Virus record (IMG/VR): IMGVR_UViG_3300045988_024527
Span: 1 to 64,000 of that record
DNA: 64,000 nucleotides
Origin: a virus
Taxonomy: Duplodnaviria; Heunggongvirae; Uroviricota; Caudoviricetes
Strand: one strand, 5' to 3'
Position 1 is the first letter of the stretch. Each line of letters starts with the position of its first letter. Shown here piece after piece: positions 465 to 7,590 of the stretch. The notes below the pieces were generated by a model. That model did no database searches, was not told the DNA's origin, and was given only the letters and a program-made list of their open reading frames with translations. Made by a program: the position numbers and the translations under genes.

Positions 465-601
465 TTAGCAGATTACTTAGACGACCTTATCGGGTCTCCG
501 TGTAAGGAGGTGGTCTGTATCTCATGTTTTCCAGAACATGTAAATAATCTGAGAAGGGGCTTTACAGTGTTGAGATAATACGGTAAGCTTCGAATTATAG
601 T

Positions 602-684
602 ATGGGACGATGTTAAGACTCTAAGGCATGAGCAACGGCTTCCAACACCGTTTCAAAGGGGTTCAACTCCTCCGTCCCATGCCA
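602..684 (+). tRNA. tRNA-Trp (anticodon CCA), non-canonical long D-arm
   Basis: 7 bp acceptor atgggac/gtcccat, T-loop ttcaact 662-668, anticodon loop ttccaac with CCA at 642-644, encoded 3' CCA 682-684; 83 nt with about 7 extra nt in the D region. Confidence 0.5.
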
Positions 685-697
685 AAGTCTTATTAGG

Positions 698-785
698 GGT
701 AGGTAGCGGCTAATGGTAGCCAAACTGTCTTGAAAACAGTTGCCACTGTAGAGATACGGTGAGGGTTCGACTCCTTTACTTACCG
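698..785 (+). tRNA. tRNA-Ser (anticodon UGA), class II long variable arm
   Basis: Acceptor ggtaggt/acttacc, anticodon stem actgt/acagt with loop cttgaaa (TGA 731-733), long variable arm, T-loop ttcgact 766-772. Confidence 0.7.
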
Positions 786-1040
786 CCTAATAAGATTTAA
801 TTCCCGCGCTCGTCTAACAAGCTCGGTTTTTACTCGTGTATTGTCGTACACACTGACAAAGCACCTAGTAGGTGTCACGGAGAAGAGATAATATCAAGCT
901 CTCCAAAGGTTCTAGTCACCGGATTAAACAAGACTATGCAAAGACCTTTCTAGGTCTTTTTAGAGGGCTTCTAAGGTTATTACAGCTTGTTGTGGAACCT
1001 TGTTGCTTAGGTTCTTAGAAGTTCTCTAAAAAGGTTTAAT

Positions 1041-1118
1041 GGGAGATTGACGGTAATTGGTAAACCTATCTCGCTTAGAACGAGATGTTTGAGGGTTCGA
1101 ATCCCTTGTCTCCTACCA
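1041..1118 (+). tRNA. tRNA with anticodon UAG (Leu-type anticodon, short variable arm)
   Basis: Anticodon stem tctcg/cgaga with loop cttagaa (TAG 1076-1078), T-arm gaggg-ttcgaat-ccctt, acceptor gggagat/gtctcct with two G-U pairs, CCA 1116-1118. Confidence 0.5.
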
Positions 1119-1125
1119 AGTTAAT

Positions 1126-1201
1126 GCAGGTGTAGCAAAATGGTTATGCGGCTGACTCTTAATCAGTAAGACGATGGGTTCAATTCCCTCCACCTGTACC
1201 A
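1126..1201 (+). tRNA. tRNA-Lys (anticodon CUU)
   Basis: 76 nt; acceptor gcaggtg/cacctgt, anticodon loop ctcttaa (CTT 1158-1160), T-loop ttcaatt, CCA 1199-1201. Confidence 0.65.
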
Positions 1202-1206
1202 AAAAT

Positions 1207-1282
1207 GGGGTCATAGTTTATATGGTTAAAATTCGAGTTTTGCAAACTTGGGAACTGAGTTCAATTCTCAGTGACTCCACCA
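1207..1282 (+). tRNA. tRNA-Ala (anticodon UGC)
   Basis: 76 nt; acceptor ggggtca/tgactcc with G3-U70, anticodon stem cgagt/acttg with loop tttgcaa (TGC 1240-1242), T-arm ctgag-ttcaatt-ctcag, CCA 1280-1282. Confidence 0.8.
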
Positions 1283-1288
1283 ATTAGT

Positions 1289-1363
1289 GCATCCATAGTT
1301 TAAACGGGAAAATTACAGTCTTCCAAACTGAGGTTGAGGGTTCGATTCCCTCTGGATGCTCCA
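1289..1363 (+). tRNA. tRNA-Gly (anticodon UCC)
   Basis: Acceptor gcatcca/tggatgc, anticodon loop cttccaa (TCC 1322-1324), T-arm gaggg-ttcgatt-ccctc, CCA 1361-1363. Confidence 0.8.
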
Positions 1364-1370
1364 AATTAAT

Positions 1371-1447
1371 GCTGCTTTCGTATAATTGGCTATTACACAT
1401 CCCTTGTAAGGATGGAAATGCAGGTTCGAGTCCTGTGAGCAGCACCA
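1371..1447 (+). tRNA. tRNA-Thr (anticodon UGU)
   Basis: Acceptor gctgctt/gagcagc, anticodon stem catcc/ggatg with loop cttgtaa (TGT 1405-1407), T-loop ttcgagt, CCA 1445-1447. Confidence 0.8.
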
Positions 1448-1542
1448 ATTCAGAGGTCAAGTGAAAGACCGCTGGTGTCAACTGAAGACCGTAACAAATT
1501 CCACGGAGTTGAGTTAGCGGCACAACTTCAGACCTCTTTCAC

Positions 1543-1617
1543 ACTCGCTTAGTTTATATGGTAAAGCCCCATCCTTACAAGTTGGTGAAAAAGGTTCAAG
1601 TCCTTTAGTGAGTACCA
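1543..1617 (+). tRNA. tRNA-Val (anticodon UAC)
   Basis: Acceptor actcgct/agtgagt, anticodon loop cttacaa (TAC 1576-1578), T-arm aaagg-ttcaagt-ccttt, CCA 1615-1617. Confidence 0.7.
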
Positions 1618-1618
1618 T

Positions 1619-1696
1619 GTTCCAGTATCCCAATTGGCAGAGGATGCAAGCTCAAACCTTGTACTAGTGACGGTTCGAATCCGTCTTGGAACACCA
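1619..1696 (+). tRNA. tRNA with anticodon CAA (Leu-type anticodon, short variable arm)
   Basis: Acceptor gttccag/ttggaac, anticodon stem gcaag/cttgt with loop ctcaaac (CAA 1653-1655), T-arm gacgg-ttcgaat-ccgtc, CCA 1694-1696; 78 nt, variable region only about 6 nt. Confidence 0.55.
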
Positions 1697-1712
1697 ATTT
1701 TAGGAGAGCACT

Positions 1713-1820
1713 ATGAGTGATAAGTCCATCGCAAAAAAGTTTAGAGCGTCATATCTAAACAGACGTAAAAACAAAGTTTGTGAAAAACTGTATGGTGTTC
1801 TCGTAGGTAAGCAGGATTAG
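1713..1820 (+). CDS. hypothetical small protein (35 aa), MSDKSIAKKFRASYLNRRKNKVCEKLYGVLVGKQD
   Basis: ATG 1713 preceded by aggagag SD; stop TAG 1818-1820 lies inside the start of tRNA-Arg; below ORF-track size cutoff. Confidence 0.25.
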   Translation: MSDKSIAKKFRASYLNRRKNKVCEKLYGVLVGKQD

Positions 1821-1886
1821 TTCAAATGGATAGAGCAACAGTCTACGAAGCTGTTAATAGGGGTTCGAATCCCTTATCCTGCGCCA
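1811..1886 (+). tRNA. tRNA-Arg (anticodon ACG)
   Basis: 76 nt; perfect acceptor gcaggat/atcctgc, D-stem gttc/gagc, anticodon stem acagt/gctgt with loop ctacgaa (ACG 1845-1847), T-loop ttcgaat, CCA 1884-1886. Confidence 0.85.
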
Positions 1887-1904
1887 GATAAGCAAGAGGA
1901 ATTT

Positions 1905-2147
1905 ATGCAAACATTAATCGTCGTTGCACATGAAAACCCCAATAGTATTGAGTTTGTAAGGGTTCCCACTATAGATACCCACATTTTCTTGAAAGTCGGA
2001 TGGGAATGCGACCCAATAAAAGTAGGGAAATTTCTTGGTCATTACTTTGGTGGAAGACAATTTAAAAGTATCAATTTTGAGACAGTGTTACCAGAAAACT
2101 CAGAAACAGATAATAATACTTACCTCCTTACGAGGATTAGACAATGA
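1905..2147 (+). CDS. hypothetical protein (80 aa) embedded in tRNA array
   Basis: ORF track; abuts the next ORF; no recognisable motif. Confidence 0.35.
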   Translation: MQTLIVVAHENPNSIEFVRVPTIDTHIFLKVGWECDPIKVGKFLGHYFGGRQFKSINFETVLPENSETDNNTYLLTRIRQ

Positions 2148-2701
2148 GATACTTAAAATATGCTTCATGGATTTTCCTAGCTTTACTAGAACCATTTGCA
2201 GCAGCCCTAGCAGTCATCTTAGCACCTTTCGTAGTTCCATTCTACAGTGAGAAGAAAGGACATCTACCTTTTGGATTCAGATGGATGGAGACCTACGACA
2301 ACCCGATTGATGGTGATGAAGGTCACGTTAAAAGATGGGCTAAGATTAGAAAGATTGGTAAGCTGGGTGTCTACATGCAGAGAGTTGGATGGCTCTGGAG
2401 AAACAAAGCTTATAACTTCTCTTACCATGTATTAGGAAGAGATGTAAAAGATGTTACTAAGTGGAAAGGTAATATCAACGTAAGTTCTAACCCTGAAGAT
2501 AATCAGACTGGTTATCTCCTAATGTGGAACAGTAATGCTTGGGGATTATTCGCTTTTATCCCATCAATTAAAGTCTTTGGTAAACAGTTTTACTGGAGAA
2601 TTTATATTGGATGGAAACTAAAAAGTGTTGTCCCAGAAGAAAGAGCATTCTCAAGGGAAAGAGTTATGTTGGCATTCTTTATTCATCCACTGAGAAAGTA
2701 A
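2144..2701 (+). CDS. hypothetical membrane-anchored protein (185 aa)
   Basis: ORF track; hydrophobic N-terminus IFLALLEPFAAALAVILAPFVVPF, Trp-rich body; function not recognised. Confidence 0.5.
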   Translation: MRYLKYASWIFLALLEPFAAALAVILAPFVVPFYSEKKGHLPFGFRWMETYDNPIDGDEGHVKRWAKIRKIGKLGVYMQRVGWLWRNKAYNFSYHVLGRDVKDVTKWKGNINVSSNPEDNQTGYLLMWNSNAWGLFAFIPSIKVFGKQFYWRIYIGWKLKSVVPEERAFSRERVMLAFFIHPLRK

Positions 2702-2709
2702 AGATTTAA

Positions 2710-2785
2710 AGGGGATTAGTTTACAAGGTTAAAACCTCGGTCTTTGAAATCGAAGAAGTTGGTTCAATTCCAACATCCCCCGCCA
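2710..2785 (+). tRNA. tRNA-Gln (anticodon UUG)
   Basis: Anticodon stem tcggt/atcga with loop ctttgaa (TTG 2744-2746), T-arm gttgg-ttcaatt-ccaac, acceptor with A1-C72 mismatch, CCA 2783-2785. Confidence 0.7.
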
Positions 2786-2787
2786 AT

Positions 2788-2866
2788 GCTCCATTACTCC
2801 AATTGGCAGAGAGGCCAGACTTAAAATCTGTGTTATGTATCGGTTCGAATCCGATATGGAGTACCA
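2788..2866 (+). tRNA. tRNA with anticodon UAA (Leu-type anticodon, short variable arm)
   Basis: Acceptor gctccat/atggagt, anticodon loop cttaaaa (TAA 2822-2824), T-arm atcgg-ttcgaat-ccgat, CCA 2864-2866; 79 nt, variable region about 7 nt. Confidence 0.5.
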
Positions 2867-2871
2867 ATTTT

Positions 2872-2947
2872 AGCGGTATAGCATAACTGGCAATGCAACA
2901 GTCTCTGAAGCTGTCCTATTAAGGTTCAAATCCTTATGCCGCTGCCA
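2872..2947 (+). tRNA. tRNA-Gln (anticodon CUG)
   Basis: 76 nt; acceptor agcggta/tgccgct, perfect D-stem gcat/atgc, anticodon stem acagt/gctgt with loop ctctgaa (CTG 2905-2907), T-loop ttcaaat, CCA 2945-2947. Confidence 0.75.
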
Positions 2948-2978
2948 CTTCTAAGGGTTCTTACGAGAGTCCTTAAAT

Positions 2979-3054
2979 GTGGCCTTATCATAAATGGTAA
3001 TGACCCATGCTGTGAACATGGTCTATACGGGTTCAAATCCCGTAGGTCACCCCA
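2979..3054 (+). tRNA. tRNA-His (anticodon GUG)
   Basis: 76 nt; acceptor gtggcct/aggtcac, D-stem tcat/atga, perfect anticodon stem ccatg/catgg with loop ctgtgaa (GTG 3012-3014), T-arm acggg-ttcaaat-cccgt, CCA 3052-3054. Confidence 0.8.
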
Positions 3055-3059
3055 ATTTA

Positions 3060-3136
3060 TAGCCCAAGTAGCTTATATGGTTAAAGCGCGTGTCTGAAAA
3101 ACATGAGAAGAGGGTTCAAATCCCACTGGACTACCA
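3060..3136 (+). tRNA. tRNA-Phe (anticodon GAA), imperfect acceptor stem
   Basis: D-stem gctt/aagc, anticodon stem cgtgt/acatg with loop ctgaaaa (GAA 3096-3098), T-loop ttcaaat 3115-3121; best acceptor pairing tagccca/tggacta has one mismatch and irregular spacing. Confidence 0.45.
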
Positions 3137-3152
3137 ATTTCAAAGGTGCTTA

Positions 3153-3887
3153 ATGAAAGAGATGACAGAACAAGGTAAGGAGATTTTTAATCTCTTAAAA
3201 ACCGGTAAAGGGTTTTCTAACCCACTTATTACTGGTGCAGCAGTTCTCGGTGGAACCGTAGCTGCCTCTACATCACTTGTAAGCTCTATTAGCTCTGTAA
3301 CAGACCCTACAATGAAGGAGAAACTTGTTGCTGCTGGACTTACAACAGTCCTTCTAAACAGTTTTACAACAAGCCTGACAAGCACTACAGCAACCACTAA
3401 GACCTTAACAGATTATGGTCAAAAGTCTATTGATGAGTTTTCATCACGTATGCAGGTAGCAAAGGGATACTCCAATGTTATGGGTGCAGCAGGAGAACAA
3501 GTTGGTTGTACACCATTCAGTGGTATTATGGGTGTTGCTACAGAGTATGGTCAAAAAGCTATTGACATGATTAACAGTACACTAGATAGTGTTAATGGTG
3601 TGTTAAGTGACTTACAAGACGCTATTGACAAGGGTCTTGATACTGTTTCTGATTTAGCTAACCAAGCTGTCAGTAAGATTAATGAAGGTATTTCAAAGAT
3701 TACAGCTTATGCAGATGAAGTTGTGCAGATGATTGAAGAAGAAGCTGCCCTTATTGCAGAGTACCTTAAAACGAATATCAATGGGTTCTTAGCAGGTATC
3801 TTACCAGACTGGTTTGATGATGCCTGTAAAACTGGTGTAATTGACACTATTGCAACACCAGAAATGAAGAGCGCATTACAGAAATAA
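3153..3887 (+). CDS. hypothetical protein (244 aa) embedded in tRNA array
   Basis: ORF-track frame 3090-3887; start moved to ATG 3153 (SD-like aaagg upstream) because 3090-3136 overlaps tRNA-Phe; Ser/Thr-rich N-terminus, no recognised domain. Confidence 0.5.
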   Translation: MKEMTEQGKEIFNLLKTGKGFSNPLITGAAVLGGTVAASTSLVSSISSVTDPTMKEKLVAAGLTTVLLNSFTTSLTSTTATTKTLTDYGQKSIDEFSSRMQVAKGYSNVMGAAGEQVGCTPFSGIMGVATEYGQKAIDMINSTLDSVNGVLSDLQDAIDKGLDTVSDLANQAVSKINEGISKITAYADEVVQMIEEEAALIAEYLKTNINGFLAGILPDWFDDACKTGVIDTIATPEMKSALQK

Positions 3888-3888
3888 T

Positions 3889-3981
3889 GGAAGATTAACC
3901 CTAAAAGGTAAGGGAGCAGTTTGCTAAACTGCCAGTAGCTGAGAAATCGGTGTACCAGTTCAAGTCTGGTATCTTCCTCCA
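3889..3981 (+). tRNA. tRNA-Ser (anticodon GCU), class II long variable arm
   Basis: 93 nt; perfect acceptor ggaagat/atcttcc, perfect anticodon stem gcagt/actgc with loop ttgctaa (GCT 3923-3925), about 21 nt variable arm, T-arm accag-ttcaagt-ctggt, CCA 3979-3981. Confidence 0.85.
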
Positions 3982-3985
3982 ATTT

Positions 3986-4061
3986 GAATCCGTGACAGAA
4001 ATGGCTATGTGCCTGTCTGCAAAACAGGTTTATAATGGTTCAAGTCCCTTCGGATTCTCCA
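3986..4061 (+). tRNA. tRNA-Cys (anticodon GCA)
   Basis: 76 nt; perfect acceptor gaatccg/cggattc, perfect anticodon stem cctgt/acagg with loop ctgcaaa (GCA 4019-4021), T-loop ttcaagt, CCA 4059-4061. Confidence 0.8.
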
Positions 4062-4098
4062 AGTTATTTTACTCTCTCTCAATTAAAATAATAATAAT

Positions 4099-4158
4099 GC
4101 CCTGCTATAAGTATTCTTCCTTTCGCTACCGAAGAGTATTTTTAGACAGGGCTTTTTT
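4099..4158 (+). terminator. terminator-like long hairpin ending the tRNA array
   Basis: gccctg (4099-4104) pairs cagggc (4147-4152), followed by tttttt 4153-4158. Confidence 0.45.
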
Positions 4159-4233
4159 ACAGAGTTATACTTTATAGGAAGACTTATACAGTATGTCTCT
4201 GACGTACATTGTGGTTTCTCCTTGACGGTCTCT

Positions 4234-4257
4234 GTGCCGTCTTTTTTAAGGGGAAAC
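4234..4257 (+). terminator. rho-independent terminator
   Basis: Stem gacgg/ccgtc with loop tctctgtg, then tttttt 4252-4257. Confidence 0.55.
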
Positions 4258-4283
4258 AATATTAATTATTTGGAGAAAACATA

Positions 4284-4484
4284 ATGAGCGAGAACGTTTA
4301 TAAAGAACTTTATGAAGCTAACAAGAAGTTAGAGTTTATGCAGAATACTATCATGGCAATTGCAGACAGATTATCTGTAGCAACAGGTATTGATATTAAA
4401 GAAGCATCTATGGATGCACTTCTTGATGCTGTTGATGCAAAGTTCGAAGTTAAGAAAGAAGAGACTGCTACAGACTCTGAATAA
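4284..4484 (+). CDS. hypothetical small protein (66 aa) immediately upstream of terminase large subunit
   Basis: ORF track; ggag SD before ATG; position would suit a small terminase subunit or accessory protein but no motif recognised. Confidence 0.4.
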   Translation: MSENVYKELYEANKKLEFMQNTIMAIADRLSVATGIDIKEASMDALLDAVDAKFEVKKEETATDSE

Positions 4485-4505
4485 TTCTATTTGCGGAGGC
4501 GCTTA

Positions 4506-6107
4506 ATGGACTTAAATGCTGTTAAGCAGAAGCGAGTGGAAGATGTTAGGAAAGTCCTAGCTGGAGAGTTGGGGCTTTCTGATGAAGTAAAAGAAATTAT
4601 TAAATCATTCGGTAAAGACCCCTCTAAATTCCTTCCAACTCAAATTCTGACTTTATTAAGATACACACCAGACCAAGTTCGCCTCATCTTTAAATTGATG
4701 ACTGATAAGAACTATGTAGCCCCTCAGCCGGGTTCTCAAGAGGTCTTTTTAAACACTAATGCTGACTTGGTTCTCTATGGTGGTGCTGCTGGTGCTGGTA
4801 AAACTGCTGCATTGTTAATGGACTCTTTAAGATTTATTGAAGACCCTAACTATAATGCTGTATATTTCCGTCGAAATACAACACAGTTACAAGGTGGTTT
4901 ATGGCCTGCTGCAAAGAAACTATTTGGTAAGTTTGGTGGGATTCCTCACGAGCAGAAAATGACTATCACATTCCCTTCTGGGGCAACTATCAAGTTTACC
5001 TACCTAGAACTTGAAAAGCACGCTGAAGGTCATCAGGGTATTGAATACTCAGCTATTTACTTTGACGAAGGTACACACTTCTCTGCTTCACAGATTTCAT
5101 ACCTACAAACCCGTCTACGTTCTGGTGCTGAAGGTGATTCATACATGAAGATTTCCATGAACCCAGATAGAGACCACTTTATTTATGATTGGGTAGAGCC
5201 ATTCTTAGATGAAGAAGGTTATCCAGACCCTGAAAAGTGTGGTCGTATTCGTTGGTATGTAATGAATGATGGTGTGATGGTTTCTGATTGGGAGAGAGAC
5301 AAGATTCTTGAAATGTTCCCTCTTGAGATTCCTCAAACATACACATTCATCTCTGGTACGATTGATGATAACCCAATCCTTGACTTCTTAGAACCTAAGT
5401 ACCGTGGTAAGTTGGAAAACAACACCCCTGTAAACGTTGCAAGACTTCGTTTCGGTAACTGGAAAGCTCGTGCAGAAGGTTCAAACTATTGGCAAAGACA
5501 ATGGTGTGAGATTGTTGATTCACTCCCAGAAGATGTATTTGATGTTAGAGCATGGGACTTAGCAGCAACTTTACCATCTGAGATTAACCCTAATCCAGAC
5601 TGGACAGCAGGTGTTAAGATGGGTAAATCTAAAAAAGACGGTTGCTATTATATCATTGATGTAGTAAGATTTAGAGATAGACCCTCTGGAGTCGAAACAC
5701 AAATTAATTTGACTGCTGAAAGTGACGGTAAGCGAACTGGTATTTTTATCCCTCAAGACCCAGGCGCTGCTGGTAAATCCTACGCAACATCCCTCATCAG
5801 GAAACTTGCCGAGAAAGGCTATCGTGCAAGAGCCAAACCAACAAATAAAGATAAAGTTACCCGCTTTGCGGGATTTTCTGCTGCTTCTGAAGCTGGACTT
5901 GTAAAAGTCTTGAGAGGTAGTTGGAATGAAGCTTACTTTCAAGAGCTTGAAGGCTTTTGTGGTGATGGCAAAACTAAAGATGACCAAGTGGATGCTACCA
6001 GTGATGCTTTCAACAGTCTTAACGAAGTTAAATTATTCAAGCCACCATCAATGGGTGCTCACACAGACTTAGTGAGAGGAAACCCATATGAGGGGCTTAG
6101 ACGTTGA
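4506..6107 (+). CDS. terL: terminase large subunit
   Basis: Walker A LVLYGGAAGAGKTAALL, acidic nuclease-like C-terminal half, position ahead of portal; start placed at ATG 4506 (ggagg SD) rather than track start 4491. Confidence 0.85.
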   Translation: MDLNAVKQKRVEDVRKVLAGELGLSDEVKEIIKSFGKDPSKFLPTQILTLLRYTPDQVRLIFKLMTDKNYVAPQPGSQEVFLNTNADLVLYGGAAGAGKTAALLMDSLRFIEDPNYNAVYFRRNTTQLQGGLWPAAKKLFGKFGGIPHEQKMTITFPSGATIKFTYLELEKHAEGHQGIEYSAIYFDEGTHFSASQISYLQTRLRSGAEGDSYMKISMNPDRDHFIYDWVEPFLDEEGYPDPEKCGRIRWYVMNDGVMVSDWERDKILEMFPLEIPQTYTFISGTIDDNPILDFLEPKYRGKLENNTPVNVARLRFGNWKARAEGSNYWQRQWCEIVDSLPEDVFDVRAWDLAATLPSEINPNPDWTAGVKMGKSKKDGCYYIIDVVRFRDRPSGVETQINLTAESDGKRTGIFIPQDPGAAGKSYATSLIRKLAEKGYRARAKPTNKDKVTRFAGFSAASEAGLVKVLRGSWNEAYFQELEGFCGDGKTKDDQVDATSDAFNSLNEVKLFKPPSMGAHTDLVRGNPYEGLRR

Positions 6108-6123
6108 TAGCTAGGTGAGAAGA

Positions 6124-7590
6124 ATGGCAGATATTACAGAAACACAAGAAAGCTTACCACCATTTAGAATGGGTGAAGTAGGTTCTTTGGGTCTGAAGGT
6201 TAAGAATGGAAGAATCTATGAAGAACCTCGTCAGGCACTAAGGTTCCCTGAAAGTATTAAAACTTTCCAATTAATGATGCGTGACCCTGCTGTAGCAGCA
6301 TCTGTAAATATTATTAAGATGTTTGTCAGAAAAGTCAACTGGAGATTCGTACCTCCAAAGGGAAAAGAGCAAGACCCTAAAATGCTTGAAAGAGCAGACT
6401 TCTTTAATTCTTTAATGGATGACATGGAGCATGATTGGGCAGATTTTATTAATTCTGTAATGTCATTCTGCACTTATGGGTTCTGTGTTAACGAGAAAGT
6501 TTATAAGAAGCGTCAGGGTAAGAAAGGAAAGTACCAGTCAAAATTTGATGATGGTCTAATTGGATGGGCTAAATTACCAATCAGAAACCAGTCAACGCTT
6601 GATAAGTGGTATTTTGATGAAGACTTTAGAAAAGTTACTGGTGTTAGGCAGAATCTGAGAAATGTTTCACATATTGCTGGAGCAATTAATCTTGGAGAAA
6701 GACCACTAACAAGAAAACTCCCACGAGCTAAATTCATGCTGTTTAAGTATGACGATGAATATGGAAACCCAGAAGGTCGTTCACCACTACTTAATGCCTA
6801 TGTGCCGTGGAAGTATAAAGTTCAGATTGAAGAGTACGAAGCAGTCGGTGTTTCAAGAGACTTGGTAGGTATGCCAAAAATTGGTTTACCACCAGATTAT
6901 CTGGATGAAAATGCAGAACCTGAAAAGAAAGCTTTCGTACAATACTGCAAAACTGTTGTTAACGATATGATTGCTAATGATAGAGCAGGTTTAATCTGGC
7001 CTAGATATATCGACCCAGATACTAAAGAGGATATTTTTGAGTTCTCATTAGTTTCTAGACAGGGTGCTAAAGCATACGATACAGGTTCTATTATTGACAG
7101 ATATTCCAAGCAGATTATGATGGCATTTATGTCAGATGTTCTTGCTATGGGTCAGTCAAAATATGGTTCATTCTCTCTTGCAGATTCTAAGACAAGCTTA
7201 CTAGCAATGTCAGTAGATATTCTACTGAAGCAAATTAAGAACGTAATTAACCGTGATTTAGTTGCACAGACTTATGCTCTTAATATGTGGGACGATGAAG
7301 AACATGTACAAATCACATATGATGATATCGAAACTCCAGACCTTGAAGCAATTGGTTCTTATATCCAGAAGACTGTTGCAGTAGGTGCTTTGGAAGTTGA
7401 CAAAGAGCTATCTAACAAGCTTAGAGAGCATATTGGCCTTCCTCCCGCTGATGAGTCTCAGCCAGTATCTGAAAAGCTTTCTCCAAATAGTCAAAGCCGT
7501 TCAGGAGATGGTTATAAGACCGCTGGAGAAGGTACTGCAAAGACACCTTCAGCGAAAGACCCAAGCACAGCAAATAAGGCAAATAAATAA
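6124..7590 (+). CDS. portal protein
   Basis: About 490 aa ORF directly after terminase, charged C-terminus; call from size and synteny; start at ATG 6124. Confidence 0.65.
   Translation: MADITETQESLPPFRMGEVGSLGLKVKNGRIYEEPRQALRFPESIKTFQLMMRDPAVAASVNIIKMFVRKVNWRFVPPKGKEQDPKMLERADFFNSLMDDMEHDWADFINSVMSFCTYGFCVNEKVYKKRQGKKGKYQSKFDDGLIGWAKLPIRNQSTLDKWYFDEDFRKVTGVRQNLRNVSHIAGAINLGERPLTRKLPRAKFMLFKYDDEYGNPEGRSPLLNAYVPWKYKVQIEEYEAVGVSRDLVGMPKIGLPPDYLDENAEPEKKAFVQYCKTVVNDMIANDRAGLIWPRYIDPDTKEDIFEFSLVSRQGAKAYDTGSIIDRYSKQIMMAFMSDVLAMGQSKYGSFSLADSKTSLLAMSVDILLKQIKNVINRDLVAQTYALNMWDDEEHVQITYDDIETPDLEAIGSYIQKTVAVGALEVDKELSNKLREHIGLPPADESQPVSEKLSPNSQSRSGDGYKTAGEGTAKTPSAKDPSTANKANK

Follow-up and report, generated by a model that had tools for sequence, protein, structure and literature searches.

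A Felix O1-like tRNA array with interleaved protein genes, a predicted non-canonical tRNA-Trp-like gene and two conserved spacers in a caudovirus genome fragment

The DNA analysed here is a 64,000-nucleotide (nt) stretch from a virus of the class Caudoviricetes (positions 1 to 64,000 of the IMG/VR record IMGVR_UViG_3300045988_024527; hereafter the window), which carries near its start, at 480-4260, a dense array of tRNA genes interleaved with protein-coding genes and conserved spacers. ARAGORN recovers 16 tRNA genes between 698 and 4061, all on the plus strand, and each of the 16 also matches the Rfam tRNA family (RF00005), with scores of 33.2-59.8 bits against a gathering cut-off of 29. The first cluster comprises the genes for tRNA-Ser(UGA) (698-787; 33.2 bits), tRNA-Leu(UAG) (1041-1118), tRNA-Lys(CUU) (1126-1201), tRNA-Ala(UGC) (1207-1282), tRNA-Gly(UCC) (1289-1363), tRNA-Thr(UGU) (1371-1447), tRNA-Val(UAC) (1543-1617), tRNA-Leu(CAA) (1619-1696), and tRNA-Arg(ACG) (1811-1886; 59.8 bits). 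The second contains those for tRNA-Gln(UUG) (2710-2785), tRNA-Leu(UAA) (2788-2866), tRNA-Gln(CUG) (2872-2947), tRNA-His(GUG) (2979-3054), and tRNA-Phe(GAA) (3061-3136), and the third those for tRNA-Ser(GCU) (3889-3981) and tRNA-Cys(GCA) (3986-4061). Software found no tRNA gene in the 64-kb window beyond these 16. An earlier note, made from the sequence alone, had proposed 17 plus-strand tRNA genes in three clusters. The clusters and 16 of the genes are reproduced by both programs; the remaining one, at 602-684, is called by neither, yet it forms a cloverleaf supported by covariation. A count of 17 is thus defensible, if it is understood as 16 canonical genes and one non-canonical Trp-like gene under selection.

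The packing of the array is as tight as the same note had described it. Nine junctions have spacers of only 1, 2, 4, 5, 5, 6, 6, 7, and 7 nt; the shortest separates tRNA-Leu(CAA) from tRNA-Val(UAC), and the five genes from tRNA-Leu(UAG) to tRNA-Thr(UGU) (1041-1447) follow one another at 5-7 nt. The first cluster also includes non-tRNA spacers of 253, 95, and 114 nt. The 3' CCA is encoded by 15 of the 16 canonical genes, the exception being tRNA-Ser(UGA), which ends in CCT, and the element at 602-684 likewise ends in GCCA, bearing out the observation that nearly all of the genes encode this terminus. Three open reading frames (ORFs) had further been reported between the clusters (1905-2147, 2144-2701, and 3153-3887). 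All three are present, and homology searches place each of them in a protein family conserved across phages, which upholds the description of the locus as a phage array of tRNA genes interspersed with conserved protein genes.

The identity of the locus can be established from its relatives. In nucleotide comparisons, the window and Escherichia phage EC6 share 98% identity over 480-4260, a region that is matched by 294 phage records, 209 of which cover at least 80% of it. Almost all of these are Felixounavirus-like phages, whose hosts belong to Escherichia, Salmonella, Shigella, Citrobacter, and Erwinia. In annotated relatives, the tRNAs and ORFs come in the same order, and behind them lie an ORF of 66 amino acids (aa) (4284-4484 in the window), the large terminase gene terL (4491-6107, recognized by a domain match), and the portal gene (6115-7590). 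Homology, gene order, and the adjoining terminase and portal genes together identify this as the Felixounavirus tRNA array, that is, the locus also seen in Felix O1, EC6, and REP5. We therefore state with considerable confidence that 480-4260 is the downstream part of a Felix O1-like coliphage (Felixounavirus) tRNA operon, comprising 16 canonical tRNA genes and one non-canonical Trp-like gene in a single plus-strand orientation.

As such, the locus is a known kind of feature in a sequenced and published group of phages. Felix O1 was reported to have 22 tRNAs in clusters of eight, eight, five, and one, and its array, with the interleaved ORFs and an analysis of codon usage, was published in 2010 (PMC3185647, Whichard et al. 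2010); a later comparison gave 17-23 tRNAs per Felixounavirus genome (PMC8300805). The finding is an ordinary one because the same cluster had already been described for Felix O1. One member of the array even has an established function. The tRNA-Ser(UGA) of the window is 100% identical to that of phage REP5, and the Felixounaviruses REP5-12 are reported to infect Syn61-delta3, an E. coli strain that has neither serT nor serU, because they express a tRNA-Ser(UGA) of their own, which was demonstrated to decode TCR codons in infection (PMC12269064, PMC13596443). This tRNA is thus known to function, because it is identical to the REP5 tRNA reported to be active in Syn61-delta3. The array as a whole adds nothing new in this respect, as the capacity of tRNA-Ser(UGA) to let Felixounaviruses infect recoded E. 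coli is already known. What novelty remains lies in three of its constituents, namely an unannotated, odd tRNA-Trp, two conserved RNAs without an Rfam family, and the linkage of a cassette encoding a DUF7338 protein to tRNA arrays. In the records inspected, neither the Trp-like gene nor either of the structured spacers is annotated.

The element at 602-684 (plus strand) was missed by ARAGORN at both the default and a relaxed threshold, and gave no match in Rfam at E<=1; it thus lies outside the canonical tRNAs as delimited by detection with a covariance model or ARAGORN. It nevertheless displays the general form of a tRNA, with four stems, an anticodon loop of seven nucleotides that includes U33, and CCA at the 3' end. 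Its acceptor stem can be drawn with 7 or 8 bp and is joined to the D arm by a connector of 7-8 nt, as against 2 nt in standard tRNAs. The D stem consists of CUC/GAG and one additional G-C pair, and the D loop contains GG. The anticodon stem is closed by a C-A mismatch and bears the loop YU-CCA-AM, and a T arm with a TTCRAMT loop precedes the 3' end GCCA, which supplies the discriminator G and the CCA. The element was aligned across 43 related loci, which yielded 17 distinct sequences when the flanks were included and eight distinct variants of the 83-nt element itself. Over these eight variants, the cloverleaf of 20 pairs is paired in 99.4% of the cells of the alignment, and compensatory changes affect six pairs, four of them in the anticodon stem and one each in the D and T stems. 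Not one shuffle out of 500 did as well, and sliding the pairing partners collapses the signal. Every variant keeps the anticodon CCA, U33, G73, and the CCA end. The anticodon CCA, G73, and the A1-U72 pair, the identity elements of E. coli tRNA-Trp, are all present in the sequence.

We accordingly read 602-684 as a predicted non-canonical tRNA-Trp under selection. An identical copy is found in REP5, where it is unannotated, and no tRNA-Trp is annotated in Felix O1 or in the other Felixounavirus records inspected; the Erwinia relative Panisse has a canonical tRNA-Trp. Were the Trp-like gene to be counted, the tRNAs of Felix O1 would span all 20 amino acids. Standard tRNA finders miss this conserved Trp-like gene in a phage group widely used for therapy and typing, and the full amino-acid set would matter for genetic-firewall designs that make assumptions on which codons such phages can decode alone. 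As a separate observation, the Panisse array (L129) has at ~2526-2695, within a gap of 418 nt, an unannotated long tRNA-like sequence that combines the acceptor strand GGGTGATT, GGTTCGAATCC, and AATCACTC-G-CCA with a large internal insertion.

Two of the spacers of the first cluster are themselves conserved. The 253-nt spacer (788-1040, plus strand) was found in 254 phage records and consists of three parts. The 5' part (~803-837) is a hairpin that, as read from the sequences, is kept while its sequence varies and is followed by a run of U. Next comes a core of ~130 nt (~835-965) that is invariant in 12 diverse variants, even as the neighbouring genes are only ~80% identical; the helices predicted in it are invariant as well, such that there is no variation that bears on their pairing. 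The 3' part is a long hairpin (~960-1033; z = -3.5) in which two pairs have changed on both sides and six on one side only. Most of the one-sided changes give rise to G-U pairs, in keeping with a plus-strand RNA. No homolog of this element was found in the Panisse array, and no sigma-70 promoter with at least 9 of 12 consensus matches was found in its invariant core. A 48-aa ORF with a GTG start (872-1018) was considered and rejected, as it has no ribosome-binding site, is invariant at the nucleotide level without any synonymous change, and is not conserved as protein in its variable part.

The second conserved spacer, of 95 nt (1448-1542, plus strand), was found in 260 phage records and folds with -30.7 kcal/mol (z = -3.0) into an outer stem of 7 bp and further stems inside it, with an apical region, GUCAACUGAAGACCGUAACAAAUUCCA, that is invariant. 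It recurs with ~82% identity in two Vequintavirinae-like sequences, where it lies directly between tRNA-Gly and a gene pair encoding ORF76 and DUF7338. The outer stem AGAGGTC/GACCTCT of the window is there AGATGTC/GACATCT, a compensatory change from G-C to U-A that was read by eye; the automatic alignment placed this stem out of register and scored zero compensatory pairs. When 40 loci, among them T4-like, Otagovirus, and Kolesnikvirus arrays, were scanned with a covariance model (R1), only the window and these two Vequintavirinae-like sequences were recovered, and neither an exact search for the core in IMG/VR nor a fuzzy motif search revealed a wider spread. A hammerhead ribozyme was also considered for this element and rejected by eye, since its CUGAAGA motif comes without GAAA and the three-helix arrangement. 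Searches of Rfam at E<=1 gave no credible match for either spacer, the sole hit being a chance-level one to a plant microRNA family (27.5 bits, with the threshold at 52).

The third spacer of this cluster is a 114-nt insertion (1697-1810, plus strand) between tRNA-Leu(CAA) and tRNA-Arg(ACG). EC6 and Felix O1 have it too, but most relatives lack it, and their match to the region splits in two pieces with 97% coverage. The insertion carries an ORF of 32 aa (1713-1811; MSDKSIAKKFRASYLNRRKNKVCEKLYGVLVG), which is very basic, has an AGGAG ribosome-binding site, and matches phrog_13848 (E = 3.5e-15).

Between the first and the second cluster lie two overlapping plus-strand genes. The upstream one (1905-2147) encodes a protein of 80 aa (ORF80; phrog_14202, E = 7.5e-40), and its stop codon overlaps the start of the next gene in the tetranucleotide ATGA. 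Homologs of ORF80 are 66-90% identical; a more distant one (32%) in the Vequintavirinae phage TH18 shows the same 4-nt overlap with a DUF7338 gene, and ORF80 is absent from Felix O1 itself. The downstream gene (2144-2701) encodes a 185-aa protein of the DUF7338 family (Pfam PF24027, E = 1.6e-61, 207.6 bits against a cut-off of 27), which also matches phrog_2143, a family of unknown function. It combines an N-terminal membrane anchor (a hydropathy maximum of 2.24 over 19 residues at residue 9, and a modelled helix from 2 to 33) with a basic globular domain of ~150 aa that has invariant W, R, N, D, and G positions and the consensus motifs WMETYDNPIDGD, WLWRNKAYN, and GWKLK. Its structural model gave no fold match in the PDB and has no recognizable RNA-related or enzyme fold.

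The genomic position of DUF7338 is unexpected. In four phage lineages its gene lies inside, or at most ~1 kb downstream of, a run of tRNA genes on the same strand: the Felixounavirus-like phages, the two Vequintavirinae-like sequences, many Straboviridae, and the Pseudomonas Otagovirus VCM, whose homolog, despite an identity of only 28%, is confirmed by a Pfam match at E = 3.5e-48. It is also found beside tRNAs in some unclassified viral contigs (L060, L063, and L066). By a rough estimate, a random gene would be this near a tRNA with a chance of 3-11% per lineage; it is therefore unlikely that the linkage arose by chance alone, unless such cassettes move together with tRNAs. On the other hand, homologs without a tRNA within 3-6 kb are known from Aeromonas phage PX29, where the gene abuts that for lysozyme, Serratia phage Totoro, Klebsiella phage MJ359, and many small phage contigs, and the Erwinia Kolesnikvirus retains an array of 26 tRNAs without DUF7338.

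The remaining large ORF (3153-3887, plus strand) encodes a 244-aa protein of the DUF7217 family (Pfam PF23854, E = 5.8e-87, 291.8 bits against a cut-off of 29). Its AlphaFold2 model is all-helical with long helices (pLDDT 65) and is too generic for a fold search. A phmmer search of the full library returned 24 clusters at 50% identity, all of them stand-alone proteins of ~220-290 aa, and no informative fusions. The contexts of its homologs point away from the tRNAs. In the Kolesnikvirus Panisse, the 26-tRNA array ends directly before a homolog that is 45% identical and annotated as a "putative structural protein"; a small ORF comes next, and then the genes for terminase and portal. Homologs from Ackermannviridae are 25-29% identical, have no tRNAs nearby, and bear the annotation "unknown structural protein [Dickeya virus Limestone]"; the structural label derives entirely from such annotations of homologs. 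At 244 aa, the protein is too small for the three Felix O1 gel bands that are named by size (82, 51, and 40 kDa). DUF7217 is thus probably the first gene of the packaging and structural module, and it looks embedded in the array of Felixounavirus only because the genes for tRNA-Ser(GCU) and tRNA-Cys follow downstream.

The codon usage of the phage was compared with that of its host using 54 long ORFs of the window (16,361 codons) and 41 annotated E. coli K-12 genes. The G+C content at third codon positions (GC3) is 0.32 for the phage ORFs as against 0.57 for the E. coli genes. Of the 17 codons cognate to the array, eight are enriched more than 1.4-fold in the phage (ACA 4.5-fold, TCA 3.6-fold, AAG 2.7-fold, CTA 2.2-fold, TTA 2.0-fold, GTA and GGA 1.6-fold each, and GCA 1.5-fold), and five are depleted (CAG 0.62, CGT 0.57, AGC 0.49, CAC 0.67, and TGC 0.62). 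The claim that the set covers the codons favoured by an AT-rich genome is thus partly supported: the eight enriched codons fit it, the depleted ones do not, and AGA and AGG have no tRNA in the window. To our knowledge, the anticodon CUU (Lys) is absent from the tRNAs of E. coli K-12; AAG is served by the phage tRNA-Lys(CUU).

Signals that might direct the expression of the array are seen at both of its ends. Just upstream of the Trp-like gene, a promoter-like region (561-598, plus strand) consists of TTTACA-17-TAAGCT (561-589) overlapping TTGAGA-17-AATTAT (570-598). A consensus scan lists the latter, and more distant relatives (L110-L113) have a perfect TTGACA at the first hexamer of the region; it may be regarded as a candidate sigma-70-like promoter. 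As an independent observation, the motif AAGGAGGTGGTCTGTATCTC just upstream of it (497-530) recurs in a spacer of the Panisse array (L129, ~3060-3085), in surroundings that cannot be aligned. At the other end, two plus-strand hairpins have the form of intrinsic terminators, that is, a stable, G+C-containing hairpin with a run of U: one at 4099-4158 (-25.4 kcal/mol, z = -6.3) and another (GACGGTC...GCCGTC) at 4224-4250 (-10.3 kcal/mol), each followed by U6. We infer that host RNA polymerase would transcribe the array from sigma-70-like promoters, of which 561-598 is one candidate, and that the resulting long tRNA-mRNA precursors would end at these two hairpins, immediately ahead of the packaging genes. 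The tRNAs would then be freed by host RNase P and 3' exonucleases, a route suggested by features of the sequence. Spacers of 1-7 nt and an encoded CCA fit the E. coli style of tRNA maturation, and the CCT end of tRNA-Ser(UGA) would need its terminal A to be repaired by the host CCA-adding enzyme. The freed tRNAs would top up or replace the host pool, such that translation of the AT-rich phage genes could be efficient and would not depend on the tRNAs supplied by the host. As for the interleaved protein genes, they would be passengers on the shared transcripts, with ORF80 and DUF7338 forming a translationally coupled cassette for a membrane-anchored protein and DUF7217 presumably opening the late packaging and structural module. 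In this scheme, the promoters and the processing route are putative, as are the timing and the roles assigned to the proteins.

Several observations weigh against this account. Promoter-like sites are not more frequent than expected by chance (13 found against 10.3 expected in shuffles), and the variable hairpin with its U-run at ~803-837, after tRNA-Ser, could split the array into more than one transcription unit. The match to codon usage is partial: the two most enriched codons, AGA (13.8-fold) and AGG (7.2-fold), have no tRNA in the window, and the difference over all codons is not significant (Mann-Whitney p = 0.10). Finally, treating the protein genes as passengers leaves the recurrent linkage of DUF7338 to tRNA arrays unexplained.

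What selective force has maintained the array is a question for which two explanations deserve comparable consideration. Compensation for codon usage, whereby the phage supplies tRNAs for A/U-ending codons that are poorly decoded by its GC-richer host, would account for the gap in GC3, for the 1.5-4.5-fold enrichment of eight cognate codons, and for the U at the wobble position in 9 of the 17 anticodons, and the same was concluded for seven of the Felix O1 tRNAs (PMC3185647). Yet tRNAs are also retained for the depleted codons CAG, CGT, AGC, CAC, and TGC, and this, with the unserved AGA and AGG and the lack of overall significance, leaves compensation as the main reason for the array quite possible but somewhat short of an even prospect. 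Alternatively, the array could serve chiefly as a replacement set that keeps up phage translation when host tRNAs are depleted or cleaved, be it in host shut-off or by an anticodon-nuclease defence. The window was counted as covering 17 amino acids irrespective of codon enrichment, and the array in Felix O1 would extend to all 20 once the tRNAs that relatives carry upstream (Pro, Glu, Met, Asn, Tyr, Asp, Lys, and Ile) are included; such near-complete coverage fits a replacement set as well as it fits codon compensation. The reports on the REP phages point the same way, in that these Felixounaviruses substitute for the missing host tRNA-Ser in Syn61-delta3 and that phage-carried tRNAs evolve to evade the RNases of host defences (PMC13596443). 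However, no defence system is known to be countered by the Felixounavirus array, and we consider replacement as its main role to be a tentative proposition.

The individual elements of the array likewise admit of more than one reading. That 602-684 might be a decaying pseudogene or a chance tRNA-like fold, with no working tRNA produced, is suggested by its rejection by both ARAGORN and Rfam, by a single-sequence fold with a z of only -1.6, and by its oddities of sequence (the long connector, the bulged D stem, and the mismatch closing the anticodon stem). A decaying gene would hardly show compensatory changes in three stems with nearly every cell paired, nor an anticodon, U33, discriminator, and CCA end that never vary, and the genus has no other annotated tRNA-Trp where its Erwinia relatives have a canonical one; this reading is therefore unlikely, and a selected, non-canonical tRNA-Trp remains our preferred one. 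The case of the spacers at 788-1040 and 1448-1542 is less clear-cut, since the view that they are mere processing or terminator hairpins, or sites acting at the DNA level, with no RNA function of their own, has a substantial claim, if not quite an even one. It draws on the terminator-type hairpin and U-run at the 5' end of the 253-nt spacer, on its invariant core helices, on the pairing of which covariation is silent, and on the restriction of both spacers to one or two phage groups. A mere hairpin would not, however, be expected to entail ~130 invariant nucleotides beside genes that have diverged to ~80%, or changes of the G-U type that fit a plus-strand RNA, and the 95-nt element has kept ~82% identity between two subfamilies whose versions of the adjacent ORF share only 32%. 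There is also a precedent in T4, whose tRNA cluster has two stable RNAs, rnaC and rnaD, at its end.

With regard to the proteins, the earlier note had raised the possibility that they act on tRNA or translation, and this found no support, as DUF7217 belongs with the structural module and DUF7338 is membrane-anchored and has no RNA-related fold. The best candidate would be DUF7338, alone or together with ORF80 and the 95-nt RNA: it is basic, it lies in or beside tRNA genes in four groups more often than the rough chance estimate would lead one to expect, and the order 95-nt RNA, ORF76, DUF7338 is seen in the Vequintavirinae-like sequences too. But its strong N-terminal anchor, the lack of a known RNA-binding or enzyme fold, the homologs with no tRNA nearby, and the Kolesnikvirus array that does without it argue otherwise, and the linkage may reflect the co-transfer of array cassettes; we deem such an activity very unlikely. 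Some GenBank records annotate DUF7338 as a holin (MZ327262 and that of Citrobacter phage HP1), a label that accords with its single N-terminal transmembrane segment and with its position at or close to a lysozyme gene in Aeromonas phage PX29 and Salmonella phage STP4-a; moreover, the holin of Felix O1 was never identified (PMC3185647). Against this, neither Pfam nor PHROG gives a match to a holin family, the ~150-aa globular domain of the protein carries conserved W, R, N, and D motifs, and its gene sits here inside a tRNA operon with no lysis gene adjoining. It is also absent from the holin candidates of the Felix O1 authors, which were chosen only by loose criteria (PMC3185647), and we regard a holin function as quite unlikely. 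A broader proposal, which would unite the aberrant tRNA-Trp, the two structured RNAs (253 and 95 nt), and the ORF80-DUF7338 cassette in an accessory set working with the tRNAs, is an unlikely one too. If true, the set could have a role in, for example, the processing of precursors, the regulation of the array, or the countering of host defences that target tRNAs. In any event, two conserved RNAs without an Rfam match and a protein family linked to tRNA arrays make for cheap experimental targets.

Comparison with known systems helps place these features. The Felixounavirus clusters (Felix O1, EC6, REP5-12, and phiWec172) share the locus, the tRNA order, DUF7338 and DUF7217, and the terminase and portal genes that follow; they differ from the window in having further tRNAs upstream of the position corresponding to 461, and Felix O1 differs additionally in the lack of ORF80. 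The cluster of phage T4 (eight tRNAs, segB, rnaC, and rnaD) is similar in being a tight array with an interleaved protein gene and two small stable RNAs of unknown function. The spacers of the window, however, have no sequence similarity to rnaC or rnaD, local alignment scores being within the range of shuffled sequences, and T4 has no DUF7338, though many other Straboviridae carry it in that region. Some of the T4 tRNAs lack an encoded CCA. GOLLD and ROOL are structured noncoding RNAs that occur beside phage tRNA genes, and at ~600-800 nt they are much longer than the elements of 95 and 253 nt described here; that no Rfam family matches the window's spacers at E<=1 sets these apart from both, provided that both are in the release searched. 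Among host operons, thrU-tyrU-glyT-thrT-tufB of E. coli has tRNAs and an mRNA on one precursor that is cut apart by RNase P and RNase E. It differs in having a single protein gene, at its end, and its counterpart in the phage would be the putative co-transcription of the array.

The upstream border of the array is peculiar to this genome. Homology to the relatives begins only at 461; upstream of this point, they have ~8 further tRNAs (Pro, in some cases Glu, Met, Asn, Tyr, Asp, Lys, and Ile), and some also have a tRNA-Arg(UCU). In the window, the start instead encodes the C-terminal 71 aa of an N6/N4 DNA methylase (PF01555, E = 9e-26), the closest phage homologs of which are only ~55% identical and come from Vibrio and Mycobacterium phages. 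Between the two, 324-470 is the 3' remnant of an HNH homing endonuclease gene that is intact at the same site in phages such as Alf5, and this position is occupied by tRNA-Arg(UCU) in REP5. Judging from this arrangement, the methylase insertion seems to have replaced part of the array. More generally, the array is a hotspot of insertion, in that HNH endonuclease genes and other ORFs split it in different places in different Felixounaviruses, much like segB in T4; inserted genes are seen, for instance, in NC_042096.1, MZ150758.1, L122 (4314-4727), and L004 (2477-2905). Downstream, the longest terminase ORF begins with a TTG at 4491 that has no ribosome-binding site, and an ATG at 4506 is preceded by GGAGG. 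The latter is more likely to be the start by this sequence context, and both starts are annotated among the Felix O1 records. Lastly, the GenBank record GU169904.1 ("Staphylococcus phage SA1", 147 kb) contains the entire array at 96% identity; as a Staphylococcus phage would not be expected to have it, this record is probably chimeric or mislabelled.

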